Shown: positions 2,810 through 19,616 of the stretch, one piece after another
Numbering within the stretch: position 1 is the stretch's first letter
Layout: every line of letters begins with the position of its first letter
Assembly: GCA_018262975.1 (NCBI GenBank)
Contig: JADFDG010000002.1
Coordinates: forward strand, 93,523-157,522
DNA from: Gammaproteobacteria bacterium
Lineage (GTDB): Bacteria > Pseudomonadota > Gammaproteobacteria > Pseudomonadales > JADFDG01
Direction: 5' to 3'
DNA: 64,000 nucleotides
Notes under the pieces: model-generated
What the model saw: the letters and a program-made list of their open reading frames with translations, nothing else
The model's database searches: none
Told to the model about the DNA's origin: nothing
Translations under genes and position numbers: made by a program

Positions 2810-3089
2810 GAGGCGCGTGTCCCGTTCCGTTTTCCGTGGGACACACGTTAGCGGGGCAGCCTGCTGCGGCTCCGTACGGCAAGATTGCGGTTGGGTTTCG
2901 CGGCGACCGGCCATCGCGCATGCCGGCCACCCCGGGTTATCGATTCCACCGCCGGGTGCTGCGTATCAACGCGAAGAACTGTAGCGATGTACGGTCGAGG
3001 GCCCAAGAGCACCCCTGATCTGTGAGGTGTATAGATTACGGCGTCCCGTCCTTCGCCTGCGCAGCAACGAGGCGTTAGAAAACCCCACG

Positions 3090-3193: not shown

Positions 3194-3260
3194 CCCTTCC
3201 GCGGGTTTGGCGCCGGCGTAGTTACTGTGTGCCCACACATTGACGACGAGGAACGCTACC

Positions 3261-3883: not shown

Positions 3884-3902
3884 TCGCCCGCACCCACGGA
3901 AC

Positions 3903-5162
3903 CTAGGCCCGCGACAGGCGCTTCACCGCCTTCGCCATGAACGGACCGAGTTCGCCGAATTCCCGGTCCGTCAGGAAGCCGCCCGGGGCGCTGTATACGC
4001 CTTCCTCGGCGCGAATGGAATACGCGGAAGACAGCGCGCCTTCCAGTGCTGTCTGGCAACGCGACAAGCGCGGCCGGAAGAAATGCTCGATATCCGCCGG
4101 TGCGTTTTTCCACCCCGGCGCCGCCATTTCCTGGCGCAAGGCATCCACCAGCGTGTCCGCGCTCTCGCCCGGCAACCGGTCCAGCCACGCTTTCGCCGCC
4201 TGGTATTCGAGGAAGCAGCGACGCAGGTGCGCGGCATAGCGGTCGGTGTAGCGGTCGCCGTCACGCACCAGCACCGCGTCGCCCTGGCCGGCTCGCGCGC
4301 GCCACGCGAGCCAGTAAATCGCCACCACCTGCGCCGGCTCCAGCGCCAGCCGCGTGGCGCCGAACTTCACCCAGGCGTCGCCACGGCGCGCCGAGCACTC
4401 CATCGGCAGGACCACGCCGGACTGTTCTTCGGCGATGGCTCGCAGGATGTCCTCGAATTGCATGTCGGCGTTTTTCAGGCGCGTGATGTTGGTGGCCTTC
4501 GCCAGGCTCACCACCGGGAATTCGGTCATTTCGATGATGTCCGACGCATCCGCCGGGCTGCCGTTGCGCAGGAGCTCATCCTGACCGGGGTAGAAGAAAT
4601 CGTCCGATTCGTATCCCTGCTTCACGATGATGTGGGAGATGGTGTCGCCGGGGCGACCGAAGATGTTCATGGACTGCCCGAGGTAGTAGCCCATGGTCTT
4701 GCGGCCGCCGGCAATCGAGGCGTGGATGCGGCAGGGCACCTTCCGCTCGGGGTCGGTAAAGGCACGCACCACGCGCAGCACGGTGTTGGCAAAGGCGGTG
4801 AATTCCCGGGAATTGCGCACGTCCTCGAATTCGCGGCCGTGCTCGTCGCGCGGCACGTGCACGTCCTCCAGCGCGAACGCCATCGGCCAGCCGTTGGACC
4901 GGCACATCCGTTCGACACGCGGCGTATCGAACAATTGCTCCTTCAGGAGGCGCCGGCCCTTGCCGCTGGTAATCACCACGACCCGGTCGGGAACGAACGG
5001 GTCCGGACGGCGCAGTTTCGCGATGGCGTACCAGGTTTCGGTCAGGACAGAAGGTGTCGTGCCCAGCACGGCAAGCAGGATGTTTTCCGGGCGGGATGCC
5101 GCGGCATTCGCGGCGCGCCGACGCGGCGCTTTTCCCTGCGTGACTTGTGGCTTGCTGTCCAT
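3903..5162 (-). CDS. CARF-domain protein, Cas_NE0113 (Csx14)-type, with uncharacterised C-terminal half (possibly wHTH)
   Basis: ILLAVLGTTPSVLTETWYAI, FVPDRVVVITS, the E-DVRN region, HASIAGGRKTMGYYLG..FGRPGDTISHIIV...DFFYP. Together these form the characteristic NE0113-family CARF signature. About 200 C-terminal aa are unassigned. Confidence 0.8.
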   Translation of the reverse strand: MDSKPQVTQGKAPRRRAANAAASRPENILLAVLGTTPSVLTETWYAIAKLRRPDPFVPDRVVVITSGKGRRLLKEQLFDTPRVERMCRSNGWPMAFALEDVHVPRDEHGREFEDVRNSREFTAFANTVLRVVRAFTDPERKVPCRIHASIAGGRKTMGYYLGQSMNIFGRPGDTISHIIVKQGYESDDFFYPGQDELLRNGSPADASDIIEMTEFPVVSLAKATNITRLKNADMQFEDILRAIAEEQSGVVLPMECSARRGDAWVKFGATRLALEPAQVVAIYWLAWRARAGQGDAVLVRDGDRYTDRYAAHLRRCFLEYQAAKAWLDRLPGESADTLVDALRQEMAAPGWKNAPADIEHFFRPRLSRCQTALEGALSSAYSIRAEEGVYSAPGGFLTDREFGELGPFMAKAVKRLSRA

Positions 5163-5320
5163 TTTTCACCCTCGCCTGCCATGCCGGCCGCCATTCATCC
5201 CCCGAATGCGACCGCTCGGTGTGTTACTCACGAAGTCTGACAATACCACCTTGAACCATCCCGAGGGGGCCTGCGAAAGTACCGGCGCTGCGTGCAATCA
5301 ACAAGAAGTCCGGGACCAGG

Positions 5321-5638
5321 ATGTCCGACGTACACACGCCTGCCTTGCCGCAAGGCTCACACGCTTCCATGCCGGCCGCGGCCTCGCTGCTTGGCGAACT
5401 CGACGCACACCTGCAACACCTCGTGCAGGGCCATTCCCGCTATACCCGCCACTGCCTCTACCGCGGCGACACCGCGCTTGCCACCTACGACCGCGAGTGG
5501 GCGCAGTCGATGTCCACGCAGCTGGACGCCTTCGCGGCGGACATTCGTGCGAACGCGTGGCACTCGGACAACTACTGGGACCAGCTGCCGGCCATGTGGC
5601 TCATCGAGCAGGCCTACCAGCTCGCAGCGAGGTATTAG
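5321..5638 (+). CDS. small hypothetical protein (first gene of the array divergent from the CARF gene)
   Basis: 105 aa with strong GC3 bias consistent with real coding sequence. No family recognised. Confidence 0.5.
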   Translation: MSDVHTPALPQGSHASMPAAASLLGELDAHLQHLVQGHSRYTRHCLYRGDTALATYDREWAQSMSTQLDAFAADIRANAWHSDNYWDQLPAMWLIEQAYQLAARY

Positions 5639-5770
5639 GGGGCTTCCGCAAGATTGTGGAAACGGGCAGCCGCGGACGTTTCCCTATGATGCCGATCATT
5701 CACCGCCGCGAACCGAATCGCGACGGCACGCAAACCAGACAACCCTTTCATTCCGGAGTCGCAAGCCACC

Positions 5771-6442
5771 ATGGCTACCGAATTTGCCATCGCCAGCCCC
5801 CGCCCCCTCCCCGTCATCATCCTGGCCGACGTCAGCGGCAGCATGGAGGAAGACGGCAACATCCACACCATGAACGCCGCGCTCAAGGACATGCTGCGCG
5901 CCTTCCGCGAGGAAAGCCGCCTGCGAGCCGAGATCCAGGTGGCGTTGATCACCTTCGGCGACACGGCCACCGTGGCGCACACGCTGCAGCCGGCACACAC
6001 CGTGGCGCCGTGGCCGGACCTCACGGCCCATGGCATGACGCCGATGGGCAAGGCCATCGAGCTCGCCCGCGCAATGCTCGAGGACAAGGACCAGGTGCCC
6101 TCGCGTGCGTATCGCCCGGTGGTGGTGCTGGTATCCGACGGGCAACCCAACGACGAGTGGGAAAAGCCGCTCGCTGCGTTCGCGGCCTCCGAGCGCGCCT
6201 CCAAGGCGACGCGTTTCGCCATGGGCATCGGCAACGGCGCGGACATGGCCGTGCTCAGGCGCTTTGCCAATGACCGCGAGGCGCCGGTATTCCATGCCCA
6301 CCAGGCAAGGGACATTCACCGGTTCTTCCGCGCCGTGACCATGAGCGTGGCGCAGCGGACGCAGTCGAACAGCCCGAACGATCCGGTGCCGCTGAAGGTG
6401 GTCGACCTGCCGGCCGACGACCTCGACCTGGACAACCTGTGA
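5771..6442 (+). CDS. vWA-domain protein, TerY-like
   Basis: MIDAS-type start PVIILADVSGSM, later TPMG and VVVLVSDGQPND. Length and layout are typical of TerY/vWA proteins. Confidence 0.85.
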   Translation: MATEFAIASPRPLPVIILADVSGSMEEDGNIHTMNAALKDMLRAFREESRLRAEIQVALITFGDTATVAHTLQPAHTVAPWPDLTAHGMTPMGKAIELARAMLEDKDQVPSRAYRPVVVLVSDGQPNDEWEKPLAAFAASERASKATRFAMGIGNGADMAVLRRFANDREAPVFHAHQARDIHRFFRAVTMSVAQRTQSNSPNDPVPLKVVDLPADDLDLDNL

Positions 6443-7137
6443 TCCGCGTGGCTGGCGCCACCGCTACCGGGCCGTACCACGTGCGCGCGCGGCAGCCCAA
6501 CCAGGACGCCGTACTCGCCCATGGGTGGCGCGGCGGCTGCTTGCTGGCCGTCAGCGACGGCCTCGGCTCGCGGCCACGCAGCCAGATCGGTTCGCGTGCT
6601 GCCGTCCGCGCGGCACGGGCGGTGGTTCGCAACAGTCCGGAGCCGGACCTGGTCACGCTCGCGGAGCGAATCCGGCAGGCGTGGGAAGCCGGTATCGCAC
6701 CGTACGCGCCAGCAGAAGTGGCCTGCACGCTGCTGGTCGCGGCCGTCGATGCGCAAGGCAACGGATTCGCGGCCCAACTCGGCGACGGGCTTGCCCTTTG
6801 GCATGACGGCGAGCACCTGCACGTCATCAGCCAGCCAAAGCCGGACTTCTCCAACGAAACCAGCGGGCTCGGAATTTCGCGGAGCACGTCGGACTGGACG
6901 TTCGCAGCCATTTCGCTGGCGAAGCCCGACAGCGGCATCGTGCTCATGTCGGACGGCGTAGCAGACGACCTGCAGCCCGACAGTCTCGCCAACACGATCG
7001 CGCTGCTCCGACAACGGCTCGCACAACGCAGTCGCCGCGCCCAGCAGCGATGGCTCCTGCGCCAATTCGCCGGCTGGCCGGCTCACGCCGGTGATGACGA
7101 CAAATCGATGGCCATGGCTTTCAGGTGCTCTGCATGA
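6439..7137 (+). CDS. PP2C-family Ser/Thr phosphatase
   Basis: NQDA, LLAVSDGLGS, LGDG and VLMSDGVADDL motifs. The GTG start overlaps the vWA stop (GTGA). Confidence 0.8.
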   Translation: MIRVAGATATGPYHVRARQPNQDAVLAHGWRGGCLLAVSDGLGSRPRSQIGSRAAVRAARAVVRNSPEPDLVTLAERIRQAWEAGIAPYAPAEVACTLLVAAVDAQGNGFAAQLGDGLALWHDGEHLHVISQPKPDFSNETSGLGISRSTSDWTFAAISLAKPDSGIVLMSDGVADDLQPDSLANTIALLRQRLAQRSRRAQQRWLLRQFAGWPAHAGDDDKSMAMAFRCSA

Positions 7138-8549
7138 ACGACACCCGTACCGACAAGAAGTGCCGCACGGTCTACGACCAGCACGGCACCGCCCATGAAC
7201 TCGTCGCCATGCTCGGGCGCGGCGGCCAGGGTGGCGTTTACACCACCACCATCCCCAACGTGCTGGTCAAGCTCGTCAACAAGACCGACGAGGACACCGT
7301 GCGCGAATGGAAGCAGCGGTTCCGCTGGATCATGTGCCAGCCCCTGGAAGCGTTGCACATCGCCAGGCCGCGTGCGGTGATCGACCGGCCCTCGTCACGC
7401 GCCGGCTACGTCATGGAGCTCATGGACGGGCTGGTGCCGCTCGGCAGGCTGCTGGTGGAGACGCGCGACTGCCAGCGCACCGGGCAAGGGCTGACCGCCT
7501 TTCACCAGAGCGGCAGTGTACGCCGGCGCTTCCGGCTGCTCGCCAAGCTCGCGCGGCAAATGGCCGAACTGCATGGCCGCGGCCTGATCTACGGCGACCT
7601 TTCGCCGCACAACGTGTTCGTGTCTGCGGACAACGAGCATGACGAAGTCTGGCTCATCGACTGTGACAACCTGAGCGTGCTCAGCCGCGTCTCAGGTGCC
7701 CGGGTCTACACGCCCGATTACGGCGCGCCCGAGGTCATGCGTGGAGAAGCATTCATCGACCCGAATACGGACAGCTGGAGTTTCGGGGTAATTGCCTTCG
7801 AACTGCTGTCGATGGCCCACCCGCTCAAGGGCGACAAGGTCAACGAGGGCGAGCCGGAGCTCGAAGAGCAAGCGTTGCTCGGCGAATTTCCGTGGATCGA
7901 CGCACCAGAAAGCGAGGAGAACCGCAGCAGCCAGGGAATCCCGCGGATACTGGTGACCACCAAGCGTCTGCGCGCGTTGTTCGAGCGCTGCTTTGGAGCC
8001 GGTCGGCAGGACCCGGGGCAACGCCCGTCGCTTGCCGAATGGGCGGAAGGATTCGAGGCGGCCGACGCCGTTACTGTCCTGTGCCCGGGGTGCAGTGCCT
8101 CCTACGTGATACGCGGCGCCAAGGAATGCCCTTTCTGTGGCGCTCCCGAGGATCGCAGCCGGATCGTCATCCTGACCCATTACGACTACATGCCGCCGGC
8201 CTGCTTTCACGACCTGCTCGGCAAGGACCACGCAGGGGTGCTCGTCACCAAGACGGGCTTCGGTGCCGTGCTCGCCGACCGCCCGCTCGAACTTCGCCTG
8301 TCGCCCCCCGGTCGGGCCGCGTGGGCAGACAGCGACCCCCTGTGCACACTGACACTGCGGGAGAACACCCTCCACATCGAGCCACGCAATGGGGCCTCCT
8401 ACGTGCTGGGCCAGGTGGGTGGCGGCGATCCGGTGCGTTTTACTCGCCCCCGCGAGCTGCCCCGCACCGCCGGAAGCAGCGCGCGCACCTACGAGCTCCA
8501 CCTGGGCGACACCGGTGGCCTGCACCCGATGTGGGGATTCGGGTGGTAA
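7134..8549 (+). CDS. Ser/Thr protein kinase with C-terminal zinc ribbon and unassigned domain
   Basis: Gly-rich loop GRGGQGGVY, catalytic loop YGDLSPHNVFV, LIDCDN (DFG-equivalent), YTPDYGAPE (APE). Zinc ribbon CPGCSASY...CPFCG. ATG 7134 overlaps the PP2C stop (ATGA); the track start is GTG 7125. Confidence 0.85.
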   Translation: MNDTRTDKKCRTVYDQHGTAHELVAMLGRGGQGGVYTTTIPNVLVKLVNKTDEDTVREWKQRFRWIMCQPLEALHIARPRAVIDRPSSRAGYVMELMDGLVPLGRLLVETRDCQRTGQGLTAFHQSGSVRRRFRLLAKLARQMAELHGRGLIYGDLSPHNVFVSADNEHDEVWLIDCDNLSVLSRVSGARVYTPDYGAPEVMRGEAFIDPNTDSWSFGVIAFELLSMAHPLKGDKVNEGEPELEEQALLGEFPWIDAPESEENRSSQGIPRILVTTKRLRALFERCFGAGRQDPGQRPSLAEWAEGFEAADAVTVLCPGCSASYVIRGAKECPFCGAPEDRSRIVILTHYDYMPPACFHDLLGKDHAGVLVTKTGFGAVLADRPLELRLSPPGRAAWADSDPLCTLTLRENTLHIEPRNGASYVLGQVGGGDPVRFTRPRELPRTAGSSARTYELHLGDTGGLHPMWGFGW

Positions 8550-8552
8550 CGC

Positions 8553-11500
8553 ATGAAACTCTGTGAATTCGCCCTGACAGACCCGACGCTCTTCCGGTTC
8601 CGCGAGGACACGATTCAGCCGACGACCGGCTGGGTCGCCGACGAAGAACTCGAGCTGCTGAAGACCACCGACGGGCTGTATCTCGCGAAGCAGGGCGATG
8701 CGCTCACGACGCTCGTGCCCGTGGATCGGCGCGGCGAAGTCGACCTGCTGCTGACGCAGCGAACGGTGTTCTGGATCTTGCGCAACGATCCGTCGGGCGG
8801 GAAGGGTGCGTTCGAATTGCAGCTCGTGAGGCCTCTCGAATCCCGGGAGGTGGACGAACTGGAAATCTGCATCGACGACAAGGTGGCGGAATTTCTGGCT
8901 CGCCGCAATGAGATACCCAACGCGGATGCGGGCCAGGCCGTGGACTGGTGCCGCGACGAGTTCCTGTCGGATTCCGGTGGCATCCCCCGCCTGTTCGTAG
9001 CACGGCATGGCAATGACGCCACAGGGACCTACCAGCTCATCGGCCGCCGCTATCGCGCGGACACCGCCATCGACGCCGCCGGCAAGTTGCTGGTCAGGCG
9101 CCTGGCACCAGTTCCCTCCCCGGCACCGGATTTCGTAGTGCTGACCGGCTCCATCGCCTTCGTCGATTACTCGGTTGCCATACGCCTGCTGGGCGCTGCC
9201 CAACAGGCTGCCCTCGAACAGGCGACCGCTTCCAACCGTGGCTACCTAGACCTGTGGCGCCGCTATGCCGAGAAGGAGTGGGAAGTCTGCGTGAACGACG
9301 CGGCCAAGATCGGCAGCATCCGTTTTCACGGAACCCGCGAACGCGATGACGGCCCGGGCTATGTCTTCAAGACGGACCCGGCGCAATTGCAGGAATTCCG
9401 CCAACGCTGGAACGGCGTTGCCACGAGCGACGACACGCAACTTGCCGTGGACGACGAGGCACCGACCTGGGACCCCGCGGATCCAAACTCGTACGCGTCG
9501 ATCGGCTATCGAGGCGGCGGCTTTGCCGGCAGTGTTGTCCGCTTCCTGGACGACGGCATCGAGATCAAGTCGAACTACGACACCGCCCCACCTGAACGCG
9601 GGTACCTGTTCGTTTCGCTGTCCGGCGAGCGGAAGATGCAGAAGCGCCGTGAGGAGGCTTACCTCGGGATCGAGAGCCGGGCGCGGCTGCCGCAGTTGCG
9701 CTGGCTGCTCGAGGAGCTGCCGGTCGACGTGGCATCCCACCAGCGATTTACGCCGGTAATTACCCCGGCGGTGCGCCGCATCTTCCGCGAGGAACCGACC
9801 CAGCGCCAGCGGGACGCGATCGACGTAGCGCTGCACACCCCGGACATCGCCCTGATCATCGGCCCGCCCGGTACGGGTAAGACGCAGGTCATCGCGGCCA
9901 TCGAGCGGCGCCTGGCCGAGGACAGCAGTGCCACGCGGGATCACCGGGTACTTATCTGCAGCATCCAGCATGATGCGGTGGACAATGCCCTTGAACGTAC
10001 CCAGGCGTTCGGGCTGCCGCCGTTGCGCGTCGGCGGCAAGGAAAACGCCCGCAATGAAGGGGGGGACGCGGTAATCCAGTGGTGCGATCACAAGCAGAAG
10101 GTCGTCTCGCAGCACATCGAGGAGCGTGAAAAGAGCGAGCCTGATGCGCCGCTGCTGCGCCAGGTGACGGAGGCCATTGCCCAACTGCGGTTTGGCCATC
10201 TCACCGCAGCAAGCCGGCTGCAGATGTTCGAGGAACTGGAGACCAACCTGCAGGCCCTCGCCGACCGTGGCGTCCGGCTGCCCACCCCGGTGGTCGTGGA
10301 GCTCGAGACCTACCTCGCGTATGCGCGCACCCGGACGGCGGCCGCCCGCCCGGAGCACCGCAGTCATTTGCAGCCCCTGATCCGTGCGCTGCGAACGACA
10401 ACCGAGGGCTTCCTGGACGACGGCCCCGCGCGCGCCCGGCGGCTGACCGATGCCCTGGCCGGTGATGTGTCGGCAGCCCGCTATCACCCGCGGCTGGCCG
10501 AATTCACTGACTGGGACGGCGTCTCGCCTGCAACGGATTTCCTGGAGCGCGCTGCGCGACTGCGCGCCGAACTGCTGGAGTGGTCACTGCCCGACTACCG
10601 TCCCCCCGCCGTCCGCACCCGACTGGACGACGAGGGTGACCGTGTGCTCGCCGAAATCGAGGCCGCCCTGTCGAGCCACCTGGCACGCAGCCGCCGCGGG
10701 ATCACGGGCGTGCTGACCAACTTCCGCGATGCCCTGTTGCACTCGCCGAGGCGGGCACACGATTCGGCTGCCGCCTATGCCCACGTCGTGGGCGCCACCT
10801 GCCAGCAGGCACTGCACCGCGACATGGCCACCGTGCAGGACGTTTCGCGCGCCGACGTAGCGTCGATCAGCTTCGACACGGTGATCATCGACGAGGCAGC
10901 GCGCGCCAACCCGCTGGACCTGTTCGTGCCGATGTCACTGGCGACGCGCAGGATCGTACTGGTCGGCGACCATCGCCAGCTGCCGCACCTGCTGCAGGCG
11001 GACATCGAGGAAGAGGTATCCGAAGACCTCAACCTCGAGGAGGCCCAGCGGCGAGCCTACAAGGAGAGCCTATTCGAGCGCCTGTGGCGCCAGCTGAGCC
11101 AGCGCCAGCTCGAGGGTGATGCACGCCGCGTCGTCATGCTCGACACACAGTTCCGCATGCACCCCGTGCTGGGCGACTTCGTCAGCCGCCAGTTCTATGA
11201 GCGACACGGCCTGGACCGCATCGAGTCCGGGCGCAAGCCGGAGTCCTTTGCCTCGGACATTCCCGGTTACGAGAACAAGGTCTGTGCGTGGATCAATGTG
11301 CCCGGCCATGACGACTCCCGCCGCGAACGCCGCAACAAGGTGCGCAGCCTGTACCGCGACACCGAGGCGAAGGTCGTGGCCGAGGAGGCCGCGCGCCTGC
11401 TGCATCAATGCGACCGCGCACTGAGCCTCGGCATCATCTCCTTCTACCGTGCGCAGGTAGACGCCATCTACCGCGAACTGGCGAAACGCGACATCGCCGA

Positions 11501-11873
11501 GCCGGACGGCAAAGGCGGCTATCGCCTGCTGTCCGAATACCGGCACACGCCGGACGGTGGCGAACGCCTGCGCATCGGCACCGTCGACGCATTCCAGGGC
11601 AAGGAATTCGACATCGTCATCCTGTCGGCGGTCAGGTCGAACAATCAGCCCCGGCCACGCACCGGCGCCGCCGATGCGGAGCGCGCGGCCAACACCTGTT
11701 ATGGCCACCTCCGGCTCTCCAATCGCCTCAATGTGGCGATGAGCCGCCAACGCAGCCTGCTGATCACGGTCGGCGACCTCGACTTCATGTGCGAGCCGTC
11801 GGCACGCGAATATCTCCCGGAGATCCAGGCGTTCATTGAACTCTGCAGGAGCGAACATGGCAGCGTTCGCTGA
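8553..11873 (+). CDS. Upf1/DNA2-like superfamily-1 helicase (AAA_11/AAA_12) with ~400-aa unassigned N-terminal region (CnuH-like)
   Basis: Walker [12 protein letters not shown], Walker B VIIDEAARA, LVGDHRQLP, LDTQFRMHP, GIISFYRAQV, TVDAFQGKEFDIVILS, RLNVAMSRQR. Confidence 0.85.
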   Translation: MKLCEFALTDPTLFRFREDTIQPTTGWVADEELELLKTTDGLYLAKQGDALTTLVPVDRRGEVDLLLTQRTVFWILRNDPSGGKGAFELQLVRPLESREVDELEICIDDKVAEFLARRNEIPNADAGQAVDWCRDEFLSDSGGIPRLFVARHGNDATGTYQLIGRRYRADTAIDAAGKLLVRRLAPVPSPAPDFVVLTGSIAFVDYSVAIRLLGAAQQAALEQATASNRGYLDLWRRYAEKEWEVCVNDAAKIGSIRFHGTRERDDGPGYVFKTDPAQLQEFRQRWNGVATSDDTQLAVDDEAPTWDPADPNSYASIGYRGGGFAGSVVRFLDDGIEIKSNYDTAPPERGYLFVSLSGERKMQKRREEAYLGIESRARLPQLRWLLEELPVDVASHQRFTPVITPAVRRIFREEPTQRQRDAIDVALHTPDIALIIGPPGTGKTQVIAAIERRLAEDSSATRDHRVLICSIQHDAVDNALERTQAFGLPPLRVGGKENARNEGGDAVIQWCDHKQKVVSQHIEEREKSEPDAPLLRQVTEAIAQLRFGHLTAASRLQMFEELETNLQALADRGVRLPTPVVVELETYLAYARTRTAAARPEHRSHLQPLIRALRTTTEGFLDDGPARARRLTDALAGDVSAARYHPRLAEFTDWDGVSPATDFLERAARLRAELLEWSLPDYRPPAVRTRLDDEGDRVLAEIEAALSSHLARSRRGITGVLTNFRDALLHSPRRAHDSAAAYAHVVGATCQQALHRDMATVQDVSRADVASISFDTVIIDEAARANPLDLFVPMSLATRRIVLVGDHRQLPHLLQADIEEEVSEDLNLEEAQRRAYKESLFERLWRQLSQRQLEGDARRVVMLDTQFRMHPVLGDFVSRQFYERHGLDRIESGRKPESFASDIPGYENKVCAWINVPGHDDSRRERRNKVRSLYRDTEAKVVAEEAARLLHQCDRALSLGIISFYRAQVDAIYRELAKRDIAEPDGKGGYRLLSEYRHTPDGGERLRIGTVDAFQGKEFDIVILSAVRSNNQPRPRTGAADAERAANTCYGHLRLSNRLNVAMSRQRSLLITVGDLDFMCEPSAREYLPEIQAFIELCRSEHGSVR

Positions 11874-13350
11874 CCGCTATCTCCGCTACGAGCGCGGGCC
11901 CAAAGGCAGCAAGACCGTGCTTTGGCCGGTCTATGCCTGGCCCGTGTACTTCCCGACACCGCGGCGCAATCAACTGGACCTCTTCCAGGAAGCCATTCTC
12001 GGGCTGATGCGTGCCGGCGTACGCCAGGCGCGTGATATCGGCGACTTGCTCGCCCTCGACGCCGAACTCGTGGCCTTCATCATTTCCGCCACCCTGATCC
12101 CCGAAGGCTGGACCGACCGGAACGGCCGCCTGACCGAAAAGGGAGAACGCGTGCTCGAGACCGGCAACACCCGCGCCGACGACATGACCCGCGGCGTCGT
12201 GTTCCAGGACGCCGTCACGTTGCGACTGTGGCCCCGGTTTTCCCGCATGCCTCTTGAGGAGATTGAAGCCCTGGAGCAGGGCGATTCACACCGCCCACGA
12301 TTCATGCTGAACAGGACGAGTGGCTTCTCCGTGAAACCCTTCCTGGTGGAAGGTGCGCGTCCCTGGCGATCCACGCCGACGGCATCCGATATCTTCGAGG
12401 CCTTTCGCGAGTTCCTCGGCGACGCGAACCGGCGGCGAGGCGACGGTGGCGACGAACTGGCGCAGCGCGTCCGCTCAGGCGATATCCGCCTTGCCTCACA
12501 AAATCCGGAGCCGTACTACCTCTGGGTCGATGCCTATCGAAACCCTGAGAGCAGTTACCCGTGGCTGATCGCCGATCCTTTCGGTTACATCGACGCGGCG
12601 CCCTGGCTTCGCCACAACGTGGCACGCAAGCTCGATGGGTCTGCCGACGGCAGGCCTGACGCGCCGCTCGCGGGATACCTGAAGACGCTGTACGACAAGT
12701 CCGAGACCGCGAACGACTCTTTCGACGCCTATTTCAGGGAGATCGACGAGAGGGTAAACCTCGAACTGATGGCGAAGTATCCCGGGGTAACCAAGGACAA
12801 GCGAATCGCGGAGCAGTTCGCCACAGTGCTGCGCGTATCGGAGCACCTTCGGTCGCTTGGCAGGCACGTCAAATCCGACGCCATCGATTCCCTGATGAGC
12901 GAGAACCAGAAGCTTGGCGAAGTCGTCCTCAAGCAGGTCTATCGGCAGTTCACGATCCCGGGCGACAAGGTGCCGGTCGCGTGGAAGTACAAACAATTGC
13001 GCCAGGCCTACGCCGCCATGAACCTGGCCTTTCTCGATCAGGACGCCCTCGATGCGCTGCCGAAGGTGCCGGCCGATTCCGTCAACTCCGCAATTGACAG
13101 GAACGGTGACGTCTCGCTGAAGGCCTGCGTCGCGCTCAATGTGTTTTCCGCCTGGAAGCATTCCGGCCACCCGTTCAACAGCATGACAGCGGCAGACACA
13201 GGTATCGGCCGGCTGATAGCCCTTGCCAATGACCGCAACCTGTCAAGCCACGCCTCAGACCCCGGCCGCGGAAAGAACACGGCCGACAAAGCACTTGCTC
13301 ACGCCGATTTCATCACCGCGTGGGCCGCCCAATTCACCAACTGGTACTGA
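11857..13350 (+). CDS. hypothetical protein with C-terminal HEPN-like RNxxxH motif
   Basis: ATG 11857 is preceded by GGAG and overlaps the helicase end by 17 nt. Near the C-terminus, LANDRNLSSHAS fits the HEPN R-x4-H (RNxxxH) motif. The N-terminal region (LFQEAILGLMRAG...) may be wHTH. Weak by-eye call. Confidence 0.5.
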   Translation: MAAFADRYLRYERGPKGSKTVLWPVYAWPVYFPTPRRNQLDLFQEAILGLMRAGVRQARDIGDLLALDAELVAFIISATLIPEGWTDRNGRLTEKGERVLETGNTRADDMTRGVVFQDAVTLRLWPRFSRMPLEEIEALEQGDSHRPRFMLNRTSGFSVKPFLVEGARPWRSTPTASDIFEAFREFLGDANRRRGDGGDELAQRVRSGDIRLASQNPEPYYLWVDAYRNPESSYPWLIADPFGYIDAAPWLRHNVARKLDGSADGRPDAPLAGYLKTLYDKSETANDSFDAYFREIDERVNLELMAKYPGVTKDKRIAEQFATVLRVSEHLRSLGRHVKSDAIDSLMSENQKLGEVVLKQVYRQFTIPGDKVPVAWKYKQLRQAYAAMNLAFLDQDALDALPKVPADSVNSAIDRNGDVSLKACVALNVFSAWKHSGHPFNSMTAADTGIGRLIALANDRNLSSHASDPGRGKNTADKALAHADFITAWAAQFTNWY

Positions 13351-13353
13351 ACC

Positions 13354-15723
13354 ATGGGAAAAAAGGACAAGAACAAGTACAACAGCAGCATCCCGCAGCA
13401 GACCGCCCGCCAGGCACCCGCTCCGGCCAAGGTGGACACCCACAAAGTCGTTGCTGCGGCAGCGAACATTGCTTCGCTGACCGGCGGGCACGCACCAGCC
13501 TGGGACGAGAAGCAACTCACGTCGCTGGTTGACGTGCTGGATGGCGATTCACGCCAGCGGTTTGCCTCGATTGCGGAAGAGCTCGCCTCGCTGGGCCGCG
13601 CCGCACGCGAACTCGTCGAAACGCGGGACGCCATTCAGGCGGAGCTTGATCGCCGGCATGCCGAACTGAAGGACCGTGAACGGATGCTTTCCGAGGCGCA
13701 GGCGGAGGCCGAGCGCCTGCGCGCGGAGGCGAGCAAGACTGCCGACCAGGCGAACGCACGACGGCTCGAACTGATTGAGATCGAGCAGCGGGTTGCGCGG
13801 GAGGAAGCCAAGGTCAGGAACGGCTGTATTGACGAGCGCGAGGCCGCCCTGCGCGAACTTCGCGTGGAGATCGACACACTGCTCGACCGCAAGAAGGACC
13901 TGCTGCTCGAGAATGAGCGAGCGCGGCAGTCCATCTCTGCGGAGAGGGCCGCCCTGCAGGAACAGGCACTGGCTCTACTTGAGGTTGAGCGCAAGGCGCT
14001 GGACGCTCGACAGGCCGATCTCCAGCGCGAGGCGACGAGGGTGAAGCATCTTGCGATGGACGTCGAGGCGAAGCGCTCTGCCGACATGGCCCTTCTTGAT
14101 CAGGAGAAGGAGCACCTCCGCTCACAGTTCTTGCAGAATGAGGAACACCTAAAGATCAAGCTGGCCATTGCCGAAAGCCGGGCCAAGAGGATCGCCGAGG
14201 GAGAGGCTCGCCTACAGCAGGAGCTCCAGCAGTACGAGGAACTGCGCGACGTGCTGGCCGGTCGGCCGCCCGCCTCGCTGGTGGACGAGCTGGACGAGCT
14301 GCGTCGCGAGCGCAACGCCCTTGCCTCCAGGGTCGCAGAACTGAGCTCGCTCAGCAGCACACGCGACTACGAGCGGGTCGCACACGAGCGTGAGGACCTC
14401 TCCGCGCGCCTGGCGGAAGCCGAATCCCGTCTCGCGGCAGCCAACGCAACCCTGGGAGCGCACCGGACCTTGGCATACGAGCGCGCCTCGCTCGAGAAGG
14501 AAAACGCCCTGATGAAGGGAAAGACCACGCTCCTCGACGGCATGATCAAGGAACTCCAGGCACAGATCGACACGCTGACCAACCAGCAGCAACAGAAGGT
14601 CCCGTTCCCGGAGTGCTCCAGGATGGACGCGCCCGAGTTCCAACGCCCCGTTGCCGTAGAACCCGTTCCGGAACTGCAGCAGTTCGCGGAGGAGTTGCGG
14701 CACCGTATTGCGCAATCCGAGCCTGGCAACCCGCTGTACTACGATGCGTCCACGCTGCGCCTGTTCATTGGCGGCCTGGCAATGAGCCGCCTGCACGTAC
14801 TGCAGGGCATCAGCGGCACCGGCAAGACCAGTCTCGCCCAGGCCTTCACCAAGGCCGTTGGCGGTCATTGCGAGGTGATCCCGGTACAGGCCGGCTGGCG
14901 TGACAAATACGACTTGCTCGGACACTACAATGCGTTCGAAAAGCGCTATTACGAGAAGGACTGCCTGCAGACCCTCTACCGCGCCCAGACCGAGGCTCAC
15001 CGGGACCAGCTTCACGTCGTCCTGCTTGACGAGATGAACCTGTCGCGTCCCGAGCAGTATTTCGCGGAGTTCCTGTCGGCCCTCGAGCAGAAGGAGAGCT
15101 CCCGGATCATCACGCTGATGGAATCGGCACCGGCGAACGCCCCGAGCCTGCTCATCGATGGCCGCCGCATCCGGGTGCCCAACAACGTCTGGTTCATTGG
15201 TACCGCCAACCATGACGAAACGACGCACGAGTTTGCGGACAAGACCTACGATCGCTCGCACGTGATGGATCTGCCGCGCCATGTCGGCACCTTCGATATT
15301 CACAAGTTCGAGCCAACGCGCTATTCGTATTCGTCGCTTGAGGAGGCATTCCGGAAGGCCTGGAGCAAACACGAGAAGGCGTGCGCGAGCTTCCTGCGCT
15401 TTGTCTCGCACAGCGAGTTCACCCAGGTGCTCGAAAATACCTATGGCCTGGGTTGGGGCAACCGCTTCGAGCGCCAGGCGCACCACTTCCTGCCGGTGGT
15501 GAAGGAGTGCGGCGGCACCTTCGAGGAAGGTCTCGACCACCTGCTGGCCACCCGCATGTTCCGCGCCGGCAAGATCGCTGCGCGCTACGACCGCACAGCG
15601 GAAGACCTCAAGAAGATCGAGGATGCACTGCTCAAGACCTGGAAGCAGAACAAGCTGGCCGGCGAGCCCGAGCGATGCATGGACCGGATCCGCAAGGACC
15701 GCCTGCGCTACGGGGCGGAGTGA
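13354..15723 (+). CDS. McrB-like AAA+ GTPase with ~350-aa N-terminal coiled coil (CnuB-like)
   Basis: Residues ~60-420 are charged, Ala/Leu/Glu/Arg-rich and heptad-like (ELKDRERMLSEAQAEAERLRAEA...). The C-terminal AAA_5/McrB core has GISGTGKTSLAQ (Walker A), VVLLDEMNLSRPEQYFAEFLS (Walker B region) and WFIGTANHDET (compare the McrB NTAD motif). Confidence 0.8.
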   Translation: MGKKDKNKYNSSIPQQTARQAPAPAKVDTHKVVAAAANIASLTGGHAPAWDEKQLTSLVDVLDGDSRQRFASIAEELASLGRAARELVETRDAIQAELDRRHAELKDRERMLSEAQAEAERLRAEASKTADQANARRLELIEIEQRVAREEAKVRNGCIDEREAALRELRVEIDTLLDRKKDLLLENERARQSISAERAALQEQALALLEVERKALDARQADLQREATRVKHLAMDVEAKRSADMALLDQEKEHLRSQFLQNEEHLKIKLAIAESRAKRIAEGEARLQQELQQYEELRDVLAGRPPASLVDELDELRRERNALASRVAELSSLSSTRDYERVAHEREDLSARLAEAESRLAAANATLGAHRTLAYERASLEKENALMKGKTTLLDGMIKELQAQIDTLTNQQQQKVPFPECSRMDAPEFQRPVAVEPVPELQQFAEELRHRIAQSEPGNPLYYDASTLRLFIGGLAMSRLHVLQGISGTGKTSLAQAFTKAVGGHCEVIPVQAGWRDKYDLLGHYNAFEKRYYEKDCLQTLYRAQTEAHRDQLHVVLLDEMNLSRPEQYFAEFLSALEQKESSRIITLMESAPANAPSLLIDGRRIRVPNNVWFIGTANHDETTHEFADKTYDRSHVMDLPRHVGTFDIHKFEPTRYSYSSLEEAFRKAWSKHEKACASFLRFVSHSEFTQVLENTYGLGWGNRFERQAHHFLPVVKECGGTFEEGLDHLLATRMFRAGKIAARYDRTAEDLKKIEDALLKTWKQNKLAGEPERCMDRIRKDRLRYGAE

Positions 15724-15726
15724 CGC

Positions 15727-17559
15727 GTGAAGGTAATCGATCGACTGACCGGCGAAACCCTTGAATTGCCCTCACCGGTGACGCCGGGCCGTTATGCCGT
15801 CAGGCAGGCCTGCCGCTTCAATGGTCACTCGGACCTCGAGCCGCACGCGGTGCTGGTTGGCGATGGTTCGTCCCGCTGCGTGCTGGACGACAAGCCCGCG
15901 GGGCACTTCCCCGACACGGCGCAACCACGCGAACGGCGTGCGAAAGTTGAACTGCTGCGGGAGGCCATCCACGCCATCCACCATCAGCGGCAGGACAGCG
16001 CCGACGCGCTCCCCTCGCCGCTGATGCCGCTCACGCTGGCGAGGGTTCTTGATCTCGGTCCGCTCGAGGAAGAACTGGCGGCGGTGATGCAGGCCGGGCA
16101 CCTGGACGAGATCGCACGTCGGCCCCGCATGTCGCTGAACTACGAAACGGAACTCACTGTGCTCTCGCGTGCCCGTCGGCTGGCGCCGGATGCGCATCGC
16201 CGACTGGCCTCGAACTCCGGCGACTGGCAATACCGGACGTTCAGCGGCATCGTGCCCCGGCGCGTGCTGGCCCTGCACAGCGAGGACGACCTCGGCCTTT
16301 ACGAAAACAAGGTGTTCGCGCGACTTGTCGATCGCCTGGTCGAGCACCTGCTGGCCCGCATCGCCAAAATCAACCACCTGCACCGCAATCTCGAGGATGC
16401 CATGCGCCTGCAGGACGCGGAGCACCTCTTCCGTCCCCTCCGCGAGGAACTCTGCTCCCTGTGGGGAGAGGCCTTCCTCGCAGCAGACAGCAACACGGCG
16501 CACGAACTCGAACGCAGCCTCGACGCCCGCGAACGCCTGACCCGCCTGCTGCGCAAGCTGCTGGCCTTCAAGCATGGCGACCTCTACGCCGCCATTCCGC
16601 AGAGCGCGCAGGTACCCGAAAAGCTGCGTGACACCAACATCCTCATCCACGACCCGCATTACCGGCACCTGCGGGACCTCTGGAACCGGGCGGCCGGCGA
16701 GAGGGCGAGCGCACGCCTGACGCCCCGCGAACAGATGCTGGTCGAGCAGCGATGTCTGGCCAACTACTCGTCCTACGTCGGCTTGGTCGTGGCGCGCGCC
16801 TTGCGGTCATTCGGGCACGACTTCGCATCAGGCGCCGACGGCGGCAGCGAGGCTGTGCTGGGCCATACACGCATCCGCGTGACACGGCAGGGCCTCGACT
16901 GGCACCTGAACGATGGCCGGTCGGAGATCGTGCTTGTCCCGTTCGAGTTCGCCTTTTCCGGGGCTGAGCAACCGGCCGTGGCCGGCGCGACGCAGCGCTA
17001 CGCGGTCTGCTGCTTTCCGCAGGGGACCGATCCGCGGGACGATACTGCGCACGGCGGGCTGTCCGTTCATCCGGCCGACTTCTACGTCGAGGAGAAGATC
17101 CGCGCCATGCTGACCGACTGGCAGCTCCGTCCGATGTTCGCGCGCTATGGCACGCCACTGAAAAACGTGCCGAATGCCATTGTCGACTTCCTGCGTGACC
17201 ACGACTTGGGCCGTGGCGACGCCAGCCAATTATTCATCGTGAAACCGCCCGCCAACGGGCAGCGCGCAGCCCTCGATGCCGTGGCGGCGCGGCACGCCAA
17301 CCCGCAAACACGAGCGGACGTGCTGCAGCGCCTCGACGACCTCCGGGTCTTGTCCACCTGTCGGAACGACTGGTGCGGCGCCGCCATGGCGTTCGAGCCG
17401 TCAGACGGCGGGTGCTTTCACGCCTACTGCCACCGCTGCGGCGCCCGCACCGGCATCCGGCTCGATCATCACCGGCGCCATGCCTTCTTGTGGCCGGATG
17501 GCGCAGCACAGCCGGGTGACACCGACTACGGCGCGCGGCGGCTGGAGTTTGACCTATGA
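15727..17559 (+). CDS. McrC/DUF2357-like partner protein with C-terminal Cys/His zinc-ribbon-like cluster (CnuC-like)
   Basis: Starts 3 nt after the McrB-like gene. DLGLYENKVFARLVDRLV resembles the DUF2357/McrC 'ENr' helix. The C-terminus is CRNDWCG...CFHAYCHRCG. I could not find a canonical PD-(D/E)xK motif by eye. Confidence 0.55.
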   Translation: MKVIDRLTGETLELPSPVTPGRYAVRQACRFNGHSDLEPHAVLVGDGSSRCVLDDKPAGHFPDTAQPRERRAKVELLREAIHAIHHQRQDSADALPSPLMPLTLARVLDLGPLEEELAAVMQAGHLDEIARRPRMSLNYETELTVLSRARRLAPDAHRRLASNSGDWQYRTFSGIVPRRVLALHSEDDLGLYENKVFARLVDRLVEHLLARIAKINHLHRNLEDAMRLQDAEHLFRPLREELCSLWGEAFLAADSNTAHELERSLDARERLTRLLRKLLAFKHGDLYAAIPQSAQVPEKLRDTNILIHDPHYRHLRDLWNRAAGERASARLTPREQMLVEQRCLANYSSYVGLVVARALRSFGHDFASGADGGSEAVLGHTRIRVTRQGLDWHLNDGRSEIVLVPFEFAFSGAEQPAVAGATQRYAVCCFPQGTDPRDDTAHGGLSVHPADFYVEEKIRAMLTDWQLRPMFARYGTPLKNVPNAIVDFLRDHDLGRGDASQLFIVKPPANGQRAALDAVAARHANPQTRADVLQRLDDLRVLSTCRNDWCGAAMAFEPSDGGCFHAYCHRCGARTGIRLDHHRRHAFLWPDGAAQPGDTDYGARRLEFDL

Positions 17560-17724
17560 GTTGCGCTTGTTGATGGCGGCCAAAAGCCGGAGCGAACCCC
17601 TGTACGAGTTGCGCGGGACCCATAAAACATTAAGGCTTGGATAGTCCAAAATCTCTCATGAAATGTTTGTAATTCTTTACAACAAAGACATATGCGTTGG
17701 CGCAAGGTTTGATTGAGGCTATAT

Positions 17725-18753
17725 ATGCATCTTCAGGGGCACCTCCTATATATCGACATTACACAAATATGCGGCATCGGCTGTGCCTTCTGTATGTACG
17801 CCGACAAGCACAAAATAGGGACTAGCATGGAGCTATCAACGTTGGCGCGGGAAAACCTCACCAGGTTGATCAATTCCCCGGACGTCAAGCGGATCTCCAT
17901 CAGTGGTGAGGGCGAGCCACTAAACAACGCCAAAGTGTTCCACGAGATACTCGGATTGTCCAAAGGTGGCAAGTGCTTCGAATTCATCACTAGTGGGTTC
18001 TATCCACATGACAAGATGGCGGATTTCTACGATGCGACGAGCCGCATTGTTTCGGTCAGTGGCGACACCTGCAACATCCGCCTAAGCGCCGACAGCCACC
18101 ATATTGAGAAGGTTAAATGGCGGGCTCATGGTTTTAGTCTGGACTACCTGCGGCGCCGGCGACCGCCAGGGCTCAGTTTCTCGTTCCGCTCGATCGACAC
18201 CGATCGCGATTTCACTCGCGCGTACCTGAAGTCTGAACTGGTCCACTGGGGCGTTGAAGCAACCATTGAGTCACGCAGTGTGCTTGAAGATGTACTGGTC
18301 GCGGGCGGCGAGTGGTTCAGCATCGACTACAAGAACCTCGTTCACCCTGCTCCAGAAACCGCCCCCGGCTATCTAGATATGCGGGGCTACATCGAGGCGA
18401 TCGAGTCAAAGGTCAACAAGCCCTTTACCTTCGGCAGCCTGAATAAACCGCCACAGGCCAACGGTTTGGATGTCACGGTAAAGCCTAGCGGCGACATATA
18501 CCTGTATGGCATCGAGAATCAGCGCCTGGGCAACATTCACTTTGACCGGGTCGACTGGCAACGGCTGGTCGACCACGTGCGGGAAACACCGTTAACCCGA
18601 GCACTTTATACGCAACCCTTTACCGAGTTGCTGGGGCGCCTTGATAACACCGATCTGCTTCGTTCGATCATCGCCAAGGCGAACAATCCCTACTGGCTGG
18701 TGAAGGAGCTGGCAGGTCATGCTGGATTGCTTGAACAGTGGGGCGCTGCATGA
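17725..18753 (+). CDS. radical SAM enzyme (unassigned subfamily)
   Basis: CxxxCxxC cluster CGIGCAFC at residues ~16-23 and SAM-binding ISGEGEPL. GAGG lies 6 nt upstream of ATG 17725 (track start TTG 17713). Lower-GC codon usage than its neighbours. Confidence 0.85.
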   Translation: MHLQGHLLYIDITQICGIGCAFCMYADKHKIGTSMELSTLARENLTRLINSPDVKRISISGEGEPLNNAKVFHEILGLSKGGKCFEFITSGFYPHDKMADFYDATSRIVSVSGDTCNIRLSADSHHIEKVKWRAHGFSLDYLRRRRPPGLSFSFRSIDTDRDFTRAYLKSELVHWGVEATIESRSVLEDVLVAGGEWFSIDYKNLVHPAPETAPGYLDMRGYIEAIESKVNKPFTFGSLNKPPQANGLDVTVKPSGDIYLYGIENQRLGNIHFDRVDWQRLVDHVRETPLTRALYTQPFTELLGRLDNTDLLRSIIAKANNPYWLVKELAGHAGLLEQWGAA

Positions 18754-19616
18754 TCGACTCACATAGCCACAGCTATTATTCGAAGCATGCGATCGGAACT
18801 GTCGACGAGTTAGTTCGCGCCTCGGTCGCCGCAGGCGTAACCGTCCTAACCATCACTGACCACGCGCCGTTCCCTGTGGATATGGACAACCGTCTGCTCG
18901 CGTCAGAACTTGATCGCTATTTCGCTGACATCAAGCGGGCGCGGGAGATTTATCAGGGGCAGATCACTATCCTGAGTGGCCTGGAACTCGACTACATGCC
19001 AGGTACCGACGCCTTCAATCGCGAGCTGCTTGCTCGTTACCCGATGGACTTTGTAATAGGCTCGATTCATTACGTAGAAGTTCCGGATGAAGCGATGGTG
19101 AAGGTCTGGGAGCTGCCACGCCTTGCCGGGCAGGCGTTTCTAGATCGCTACTTCGCCAATCTCGAAGGTCTGCTAGATAGTGGATTGTTCGATGCTGTAG
19201 GGCACGCTGACACCTTGCTGCGTGGCGTGCCGGAAGACATCTTCCTGCGCCGTTTTGAACCTTTGTTGGCACCGCTCGCCAGAAGCGGTATCGCATTCGA
19301 GCTCAATGCGTCAGGTCTTCGAAAGTCGAGCCTGGACCCTACAACGGGCAGGGAGGTCCAGGGCTTTTGGTCTTATCCGTCTCGGGCGTTGGTGGCACAG
19401 CTTATCGCACACGGGGTGCCTTTCACGGTTGGGTCTGATACCCATGACCCGAGCGACGCTGGCGCGGGCATTGCTGAACTGCTTGAGACACTGAGGCCTT
19501 TGGGGCTGAAGAGCATTAGTTACTACGAGCGGCGCCGACGAATCGATGTCGACCTCGACAGCCTGACGTTACCGGGCACACCAACAACTTTGACAGCAGG
19601 ACTTGAACGGCCTTGA
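18750..19616 (+). CDS. PHP-family phosphoesterase (HisJ histidinol-phosphatase-like)
   Basis: IDSHSHS, ITDHAP, GLELDY, GSIHY, VGHAD and GSDTHDP metal-ligand motifs in PHP order. ATG 18750 overlaps the radical SAM stop (ATGA). Confidence 0.85.
   Translation: MIDSHSHSYYSKHAIGTVDELVRASVAAGVTVLTITDHAPFPVDMDNRLLASELDRYFADIKRAREIYQGQITILSGLELDYMPGTDAFNRELLARYPMDFVIGSIHYVEVPDEAMVKVWELPRLAGQAFLDRYFANLEGLLDSGLFDAVGHADTLLRGVPEDIFLRRFEPLLAPLARSGIAFELNASGLRKSSLDPTTGREVQGFWSYPSRALVAQLIAHGVPFTVGSDTHDPSDAGAGIAELLETLRPLGLKSISYYERRRRIDVDLDSLTLPGTPTTLTAGLERP

Follow-up and report, generated by a model that had tools for sequence, protein, structure and literature searches.

The locus examined here raises a twofold question: do the seven genes at positions 5771-17559 of the window (the whole stretch of 64,000 nucleotides (nt) analyzed from the gammaproteobacterial contig JADFDG010000002.1) work as one antiphage system, and if so, to which class does that system belong? 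In order, they encode a von Willebrand factor A (vWA) protein resembling TerY, a PP2C phosphatase, a Ser/Thr kinase (STK) with a zinc ribbon (ZnR), an Upf1-like helicase (CnuH), a HEPN protein (CnuE), a coiled-coil McrB-like GTPase (CnuB) and an McrC homolog (CnuC). An earlier sequence-only reading of 5321-17559 had proposed a complete type III CoCoNuT that included a 105-amino-acid (aa) first gene, g1. After analyzing the locus and its relatives, we consider that 5771-17559 is quite probably one type II CoCoNuT with a TerY-P module, an accessory antiphage operon whose class has been published (Bell et al., eLife 2024; PMC11090510). The CoCoNuT class and the tightly coupled TerY-P triad of the earlier reading were borne out by an NxD-type McrB, an McrC homolog, an Upf1-like helicase and a HEPN protein. 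Its completeness also held, for a seven-gene array of type II rather than type III and without the first gene.

Coupled genes and their conservation

Eight open reading frames (ORFs), all on the plus strand, lie within 5321-17559, and each ends in a single stop codon. The vWA and PP2C frames overlap by 4 nt (GTGA), as do the PP2C and STK frames (ATGA); STK and CnuH are spaced by 3 nt, CnuH and CnuE share 17 nt, and gaps of 3 nt separate CnuE from CnuB and CnuB from CnuC. A script run on the coordinates reproduced exactly the ORFs and junctions that had been described from the sequence. The first ORF, g1, ends 132 nt before the vWA gene, and the array proper (5771-17559) consists of seven genes in the order vWA-PP2C-STK(ZnR)-CnuH-CnuE-CnuB-CnuC. 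At about 65% GC overall, the GC content at the three codon positions was gene-like in all eight ORFs, with third-position values (GC3) of 0.78-0.89. A promoter scan found no sigma-70-like promoters inside the array, and terminator-like sites in it were no more frequent than in shuffled sequences, an outcome that is compatible with one transcription unit without proving it. Scans of the window for the sigma-54 consensus, promoters and terminators gave nothing above chance, and a repeat scan of the island was likewise empty. The region contains no CRISPR arrays, tRNA genes or Rfam families, and no CRISPR array was found across the 64 kb, in agreement with the earlier description of the locus as CRISPR-less.

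Evidence that the genes belong together also comes from other genomes. A CnuH scan, restricted to one genome per species, provided 74 related loci, the gene content of which was read by tblastn with all proteins of the window. All seven genes, from vWA to CnuC, were collinear in 31 of the 74, and in a further 10 only CnuE went undetected; the rest were mostly truncated contigs. Hosts come, among others, from the Beta- and Gammaproteobacteria (Pseudomonadota), the Myxococcota, Verrucomicrobiota, Planctomycetota, Bacteroidota and Bacillota, and from Streptomyces, and one related locus sits on a Rhodoferax plasmid. Because the seven-gene order recurs in 31 of 74 loci, and in 10 more lacking a detectable CnuE, the arrangement is far beyond chance. 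Alignments showed that the catalytic motifs are intact in every active enzyme of the locus and at least 90% conserved among homologs from the related loci, so that the motifs named beforehand (vWA metal-ion-dependent adhesion site (MIDAS), PP2C, kinase, helicase Walker A/B, HEPN R/H and McrB Walker A/B) were all found in place.

Domain criteria for a type II assignment

CoCoNuTs are defined by an McrB GTPase in which NxxD is shortened to NxD, usually followed by E or D, by an McrC homolog with an N-terminal DUF2357 and a missing or dead nuclease, and by a tightly linked HEPN or other nuclease gene (PMC11090510). The locus combines an NxD-E motif, a coiled coil, a DUF2357 McrC homolog and a putatively inactive CnuC nuclease with a linked HEPN gene. 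In an alignment to Escherichia coli McrB (6hz4), CnuB matches at both Walker motifs, A and B, and at the signature, where its NHD faces the NTAD of McrB. Its signature is GTANHDE (aa 616-622), and GTANxD(E/D) was kept in 57 of 57 aligned CnuB sequences, that of the window included; Walker A and B are present and at least 90% conserved in homologs. The preceding segment is predicted to form a coiled coil of about 340 residues (approximately aa 60-400). Residues 60-445 contain 4% P+G and 67% A/E/L/R/Q/K, a strong heptad a/d signal extends to about aa 400, and in the NCBIfam scan aa 63-297 matched an SMC model. The profile match of CnuB to McrB was weak.

The AlphaFold2 (AF2) model of CnuC, computed from 25 sequences (pLDDT 82, pTM 0.82), consists of a beta-sandwich at aa 1-60 (strands 2-60), a helical bundle at aa 68-360 that corresponds to DUF2357, an alpha/beta domain at aa 374-540 and a beta ribbon at aa 545-590. 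No conserved D...(D/E)xK was found in the core strands of the alpha/beta domain (aa 374-540). A four-cysteine zinc ribbon (aa 545-571) has invariant C545, C550, C568 and C571 in two knuckles; its zinc-ribbon matches in the PDB were weak. The DUF2357 assignment was made at the family level. Thirteen of 25 CnuC homologs match DUF2357 (best 8e-5), and the homolog on the Rhodoferax plasmid, which is 34% identical over its full length (E=1e-95) and carries the RefSeq name DUF2357 protein, scores above the Pfam DUF2357 cut-off at the same position. CnuC thus appears, from sequence and model, to keep the GTPase-activating DUF2357 bundle without nuclease residues. As a side observation, its first knuckle is CRNDWC (Cx4C, aa 545-550), where nearly all of 24 homologs have CxxC and one has a single residue between the cysteines; the window CnuC also has one extra Cys, at aa 563.

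In CnuE, the HEPN motif RNLSSH (aa 460-465) occurs in a single copy, and R460 and H465 do not vary across an alignment of 31 sequences, in which the other Rx4H (aa 332) is not conserved. The tripeptide RxH is absent from the whole of the window CnuE. Among the 31 family members, 29 match wHTH-PRTase_assc and three match HEPN_RiboL-PSP (best 2.7e-6), and the N-terminus of the window protein matches PADLOC MkoB (2e-6). The CnuE family profile, run against PDB sequences, retrieved no HEPN structure and only coiled-coil noise. As judged by its motifs, the RNxxxH of CnuE is the only intact nuclease motif of the locus. In the CnuE of relatives L021-L027, L032, L038, L040 and L052, from Myxococcota, Verrucomicrobiota, Planctomycetota and Chloroflexota, the HEPN Arg is replaced and the His kept; this replacement may mean that the RNase site is altered or inactive in some type II systems.

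CnuH has both Walker motifs, at least 90% conserved among homologs, and its best matches among PDB sequences were Upf1/NAM7 (3e-16), SETX/Sen1, IGHMBP2 and DNA2. A helical insertion of about 150 aa follows Walker A, AAA_11 covering aa 417-811 as against 248 model positions. The N-terminal region, which the sequence-only reading had left as an open question, is described in the literature as an SmpB-like OB fold, a RelE-like (RTL) domain and an OB/stalk (PMC11090510). Our AF2 model of aa 1-410 (pLDDT 91), with a beta-barrel at aa 14-107, an alpha/beta domain at aa 109-205 and stalk helices with a second barrel at aa 208-375, appears to have this layout, although its fold matches were weak: the best Foldseek hit in the PDB had E=0.065, and the list held Sen1, SETX, IGHMBP2, the Rad5 HIRAN domain and two RelE toxins, and no SmpB. 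An exhaustive search of 1.84 billion representatives found 217 relatives of aa 1-410, nearly all of them close to 1100 aa in length; the same residues gave zero matches in a word-indexed protein search.

The three genes at the 5' end form the TerY-P triad. The MIDAS residues D20, S22, S24, T90 and D123 of the vWA protein are kept in at least 90% of 50 homologs, and the conserved aspartates of the PP2C protein are D23, D40, D116, D172, D176 and D220/D221. In the kinase, K46, D155, N160, D176 and APE198-200, as well as the zinc-ribbon cysteines C317, C320, C332 and C335, are kept in at least 90% of 44 homologs, and the protein matches the kinase part of PADLOC MkoA (2.1e-11). The zinc ribbon is followed by a tail of about 135 aa (aa 336-471) with variable sequence. 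The length of this tail is retained across homologs, yet no residue in it is at least 90% conserved and it has no family match; the STK C-terminus as published for type II is a zinc ribbon only, with no further tail mentioned (PMC11090510). Lenient Pfam scans of the kinase tail, the middle and C-terminus of CnuE, the N-terminal pieces of CnuH and the C-terminus of a neighboring CARF protein returned weak zinc-finger hints only. The 5321-5638 product, for which a profile check had also been proposed with the earlier reading, gave nothing from Pfam or NCBIfam.

Which type, then, do these architectures indicate? In type II, CnuE is an elongated winged helix-turn-helix (wHTH) with one HEPN domain (RxxxxH); CnuC has a short Ig-like beta-sandwich, DUF2357 with a coiled coil, an inactivated PD-(D/E)xK fold and a zinc ribbon in which two Cys knuckles are frequent, and no CSD; and CnuH is an Upf1-like superfamily 1 (SF1) helicase with a large helical insertion past Walker A. 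A TerY-P triad with an STK-zinc ribbon and a 5' RtcR-like CARF/sigma-54 activator are frequent but non-defining associates (PMC11090510). In type III-A, by comparison, CnuE carries a pair of HEPN domains, of which the C-terminal one has RxH, CnuC forms a fusion with an Hsp70-like nucleotide-binding and substrate-binding (NBD/SBD) part and HEAT repeats (CnuCD), with loss of the beta-sandwich, the nuclease fold and the zinc ribbon, and CnuB often has a C-terminal HTH (PMC11090510). At the locus we found a single HEPN in CnuE, the type II architecture of CnuC, CnuH with its insertion, and a TerY-P triad with an STK zinc ribbon; the RtcR-like activator was not found in the window, and neither a second HEPN or RxH in CnuE nor an Hsp70/HEAT fusion of CnuC was present. 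As far as sequences and models allow, the locus has the type II features and lacks two that define type III-A.

The type III class named by the sequence-only reading, more exactly type III-A, is extremely unlikely for this locus. TerY-P triads accompany type III-A as well, its CnuH layout is shared with type II (PMC11090510), and a CARF gene lies nearby, which is what could be said for it. However, CnuE has one RNxxxH and no RxH where two HEPNs are required, and instead of the required Hsp70/HEAT fusion there is a 610-aa CnuC that has both the beta-sandwich and the zinc ribbon. Pfam scans gave no Hsp70 match in CnuC, and the HEAT part is likewise not present. All 54 CnuC homologs in the related loci measure at most 786 aa; therefore, none of them is an Hsp70 fusion. 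CnuB has no room for a C-terminal HTH, with about 330 aa from the start of its McrB-aligned region; the same region of E. coli McrB is, by our estimate, roughly 300 aa. The change from III to II matters for the choice of mutants and of comparison sets: a type II system has one HEPN site and a small zinc-ribbon CnuC.

Several points weigh against a confident type II CoCoNuT assignment. The nearest relatives are only 34-45% identical, the maximum being 45% for CnuH and 37% for CnuC. Taken by itself, the window CnuC scores below the Pfam DUF2357 threshold (E=0.016), and the window CnuE lies below every Pfam HEPN threshold. Profile comparison by hhalign gave no match between the CnuC family and E. 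coli McrC, and Foldseek searches of the PDB with the AF2 models of CnuC and of the CnuH N-terminus gave nothing significant; because these searches found nothing, the labels McrC homolog, SmpB-like, RelE-like and inactivated nuclease are putative ones, drawn from layout, weak matches and transitive homology. The type II call was made on domain criteria. For this locus, RNA targeting and the roles of the single genes are predictions. Finally, tblastn with nine RtcR-like proteins found neither a homolog nor a remnant of an RtcR-like activator in the 64-kb window. Notwithstanding these points, the locus is a divergent but otherwise ordinary member of the published class, and the absence of an RtcR-like activator is its only unusual trait.

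Table 1. Positions in the window of the array, its motifs and the neighboring features
Feature	Position	Strand	Evidence or remarks
TerY-like vWA protein	5771-6442	+	223 aa; intact MIDAS; Pfam VWA 3.1e-15; PADLOC TerY 5.5e-4
PP2C-family Ser/Thr phosphatase	6439-7137	+	232 aa; Pfam PP2C_2 5.6e-37
Ser/Thr kinase (STK)	7134-8549	+	471 aa; C-terminal 4-Cys zinc ribbon; Pfam Pkinase 2.7e-16
STK zinc ribbon	8082-8138	+	
STK tail	8139-8549	+	
CnuH, Upf1-like SF1 helicase	8553-11873	+	1106 aa; Pfam AAA_11 and AAA_12; PADLOC MkoA 2e-93; IGHMBP2 family
CnuE, wHTH-HEPN effector	11857-13350	+	497 aa; wHTH-PRTase_assc 5.3e-6 (sub-threshold)
CnuE HEPN motif	13234-13251	+	
CnuB, coiled-coil McrB-like AAA+ GTPase	13354-15723	+	789 aa; Pfam AAA_5; PADLOC PDC-M26A 3e-41
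CnuB predicted coiled coil	13531-14553	+	
CnuB N619-H-D621-E	15208-15219	+	
CnuC, putative McrC homolog	15727-17559	+	610 aa; no direct Pfam, PADLOC or NCBIfam match; AF2 and family-level DUF2357
CnuC zinc ribbon	17359-17439	+	
CnuC first knuckle	17359-17376	+	
g1, ORFan	5321-5638	+	105 aa; GC3 0.85; no Pfam or NCBIfam match
CARF protein, cas_NE0113/CARF5	3903-5162	-	133 bits against a cut-off of 80.65; PADLOC 9e-61
Csx16 gene	3554-3883		overlaps the DUF4258-like ORF by 4 nt; convergent with the CARF gene
DUF4258-like ORF	3240-3557		convergent with the CARF gene
Divergent region between CARF and vWA genes	5163-5770		608 bp
Paralogous small GTPases (two)	984-1967, 2069-2914	-	MMR_HSR1; PADLOC LeoBC 9.5e-12 and LeoA 2.3e-10
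Three overlapping genes past cnuC	17713-20743		GC 0.56-0.58
TPR and CHAT (caspase-like protease) protein	47295-50792		1165 aa

A putative mechanism and its alternatives

On the basis of Bell et al. 2024 and of the biochemistry of McrBC, Upf1 and HEPN proteins, we provide a putative mechanism, the chances of which, taken as a whole, we put at about even. CnuB hexamers, together with CnuC, would form a GTP-driven scaffold or motor, with the DUF2357 stalk of CnuC activating the hexamers. The coiled coils of the CnuB scaffold would recruit and hold the helicase-RNase pair CnuH-CnuE, and CnuH, through its N-terminal barrel and putative RelE-like domain, would engage viral or translation-associated RNA, perhaps on the ribosome. 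With its single HEPN site, CnuE would then cut RNA, which would restrict phage RNA or, if unchecked, stop host translation and cause abortive infection. The vWA/PP2C/kinase triad may gate this activity by phosphorylation, the kinase and phosphatase setting the activation threshold.

The sequence-only reading had held that no member of the class had been tested, a statement that is now outdated. In the literature searched, we found one experimentally tested CoCoNuT, the Obs (Obangsin) system of Pseudomonas aeruginosa PMM16, a seven-gene type II CoCoNuT that runs from obsA to obsG/cnuC. Cloned Obs protects against two single-stranded RNA (ssRNA) phages, PP7 and LeviOr01, and against one DNA phage, MPK7; in PMM16, RNA-phage production was restored by insertion of a transposon in obsC or in obsG/cnuC, and the authors left the mechanism open (2026 preprint, bioRxiv 10.64898/2026.04.06.716636). 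By its position as third gene, obsC would be the kinase in the type II gene order.

Two other accounts of the same genes have to be weighed against a single RNA-targeting operon. The genes may be chance neighbors in a defence island, with a TerY-P module, a Mokosh-like pair and an McrBC-type enzyme each acting alone. TerY-P-like modules and Mokosh each suffice for defence in other contexts, STK, CnuH and CnuE match the PADLOC MkoA and MkoB models, cnuHE-like pairs without cnuBC exist (for example, in L020), and the flanks carry other defence-like genes. Even so, we judge independent action very improbable: overlapping or 3-nt-spaced frames cross every border between the supposed modules, the seven-gene order is kept in 31 to 41 loci of multiple phyla, and CnuBC alone would have no effector because CnuC lacks nuclease residues. 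In P. aeruginosa, moreover, the phenotype was lost with either transposon hit, the one in obsC or the one in cnuC, the last gene.

Alternatively, the locus might restrict DNA as canonical McrBC does, CnuB translocating on modified phage DNA with the HEPN protein and the helicase as accessories. CnuB and CnuC have their homologs in a type IV restriction enzyme that translocates on DNA, one DNA phage was among those blocked by Obs, and Upf1-like helicases are able to act on single-stranded DNA (PMC11090510). However, the CnuB N-terminus is a coiled coil and not a DNA-reading domain, NxD replaces NxxD, CnuC lacks the PD-(D/E)xK catalytic residues, and the only intact nuclease motif is that of HEPN, an RNA-cutting family. 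The ssRNA leviviruses blocked by Obs have no DNA stage. Accordingly, we give DNA restriction a very low probability and prefer to read the locus as a type II CoCoNuT in which CnuE would act on RNA.

Why a further example is worth describing follows from the state of the field. CoCoNuTs are among the most elaborate predicted RNA-targeting bacterial defences, with one phenotypic test and no mechanism so far. With every catalytic motif intact, the locus is a complete type II system of a divergent lineage, whose identity to the relatives found does not exceed 45%, and it raises no question beyond those of Bell et al. 2024 (PMC11090510).

Neighboring genes and comparison with known systems

In nine of ten relatives examined, and on the Rhodoferax plasmid, a gene for a sigma-54 enhancer-binding protein lies directly upstream on the same strand; the Rhodoferax activator has a weak RtcR N-terminal match. 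These activators match the published RtcR-like regulators of type II. A consistent sigma-54 site upstream of the vWA gene was not found in the relatives. In the window, the divergent region between the CARF and vWA genes contains g1 only, and scans of it found no sigma-70 promoter, no sigma-54 consensus and no Rfam family. Because the usual RtcR-like activator is missing, the operon may be expressed constitutively, and because of this possibility, the locus could lend itself well to cloning for mutational studies of the kinase, the helicase, the HEPN domain and the GTPase.

The sequence-only reading had counted the first gene as a component and had invoked a CARF association; neither survived the comparison with relatives. 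Among 5.8 billion proteins, g1 matched only an 89-aa version of itself, encoded on the same NCBI contig, and a nearly identical 98-aa metagenomic (Logan) entry in the same 90% cluster, and tblastn found it in none of the 74 related loci. Because it has no homolog beyond its own genome and is absent from the related loci, g1 adjoins the system and is probably not a component of it. A BrnT-like toxin lies upstream of some CoCoNuTs (PMC11090510); this identity was rejected for g1, which has no homologs. A remnant of an RtcR-like gene was also rejected, as tblastn showed no similarity to nine RtcR-like proteins. The CARF gene, a member of the NE0113/CARF5 family, runs on the opposite strand, and neither it nor the DUF4258-like and Csx16 genes lie beside any of the 74 related loci. 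The CARF and Csx16 neighbors are not demonstrable parts of the system. The CARF cluster (3240-5162) is CRISPR-less, neither a CRISPR array nor a cyclase having been seen across the 64 kb, and the C-terminal approximately 190 aa of the CARF protein are without a family assignment.

These neighbors would acquire a meaning if the locus were a regulatory variant in which the NE0113/CARF5 protein and the Csx16 gene have replaced the RtcR-like activator, with control of the cyclic-oligonucleotide type and with g1, in the 608-bp control region that both directions would share, as a new small regulator or anti-toxin. Were this true, an RNA-targeting operon would be under a cyclic-oligonucleotide-type signal with no CRISPR-Cas or cyclase nearby. 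Adjacency is the one argument for such a takeover, and we consider it very unlikely.

Other genes of the island are noted for completeness. At its edge lie two paralogous small GTPases that are Eleos-like in their PADLOC matches, and a GTPase homolog (38% identity) occurs just downstream of the Massilia niastensis CoCoNuT (L004:19372-19659). Starting 154 nt past cnuC, three overlapping genes of lower GC encode a radical SAM protein with weak likeness to viperin, a PHP/HisJ-like phosphatase and, by a weak match, a ComF-like phosphoribosyltransferase (PRTase). A radical SAM homolog is also found downstream of the Thiorhodococcus CoCoNuT (L016:22712-23299), and the CnuE wHTH falls in the Pfam family 'wHTH-PRTase associated', with the ComF-like PRTase gene downstream of cnuC. 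The TPR and CHAT protein lies amid housekeeping genes.

Among known systems, E. coli McrBC shares with the locus an AAA+ GTPase with alignable Walker A/B motifs and a DUF2357 partner. It differs in NTAD for NHD, in a methylcytosine-reading domain for the coiled coil and in the McrC nuclease, the catalytic residues of which the McrC homolog of the locus lacks; none of the canonical features (NxxD, a DNA-binding N-domain and an active PD-(D/E)xK) was found here. The TerY-P triad of Anantharaman, Iyer and Aravind 2012, to the extent that it is cited in PMC11090510, has the same MIDAS-intact vWA, PP2C and STK in that order and translationally coupled, whereas here it stands at the 5' end of a CoCoNuT and its kinase ends in a zinc ribbon, not an OB fold.

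In type I Mokosh, MkoA is a fused STK and Upf1-like helicase, MkoB is a PLD nuclease, and defence needs both the helicase ATPase and the nuclease (Millman et al. 2022, bioRxiv 10.1101/2022.05.11.491447). The locus likewise combines an STK with an Upf1-like RNA helicase, and a wHTH-effector gene comes next. In contrast, its kinase and helicase are split, its effector is HEPN with no PLD match, its helicase has an extra N-terminal module of about 400 aa, and vWA, PP2C, CnuB and CnuC are added. Because STK, CnuH and CnuE match the MkoA and MkoB models, one may see in the 5' half of the operon a Mokosh-like module that has been split and in which HEPN stands where Mokosh has PLD.

Type III-A CoCoNuTs have in common with the locus the TerY-P triad, the CnuH layout, a HEPN effector and a coiled-coil NxD CnuB; they differ in their two HEPNs, in the CnuC-CnuD Hsp70/HEAT fusion without a zinc ribbon and in the frequent C-terminal HTH of CnuB, none of which occurs here. 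Obs, located in hotspot cDHS2 of P. aeruginosa, is like the locus a type II CoCoNuT of seven genes, a likeness seen here at the level of its published description. From the published type II CoCoNuTs (PMC11090510), the locus departs in having no upstream RtcR-like CARF/sigma-54 activator, no type I restriction-modification, Druantia or Shield genes between regulator and operon, and a first CnuC knuckle of Cx4C rather than CxxC. It shares with them the gene order from vWA to CnuC with overlapping frames, the NxD GTPase on a long coiled coil, the CnuE of wHTH and one RxxxxH HEPN, the CnuC of beta-sandwich, DUF2357, nuclease-dead alpha/beta domain and two Cys knuckles, and, as modelled, the CnuH whose Upf1-like core is preceded by an N-terminal barrel, then an alpha/beta domain and a stalk/OB part.

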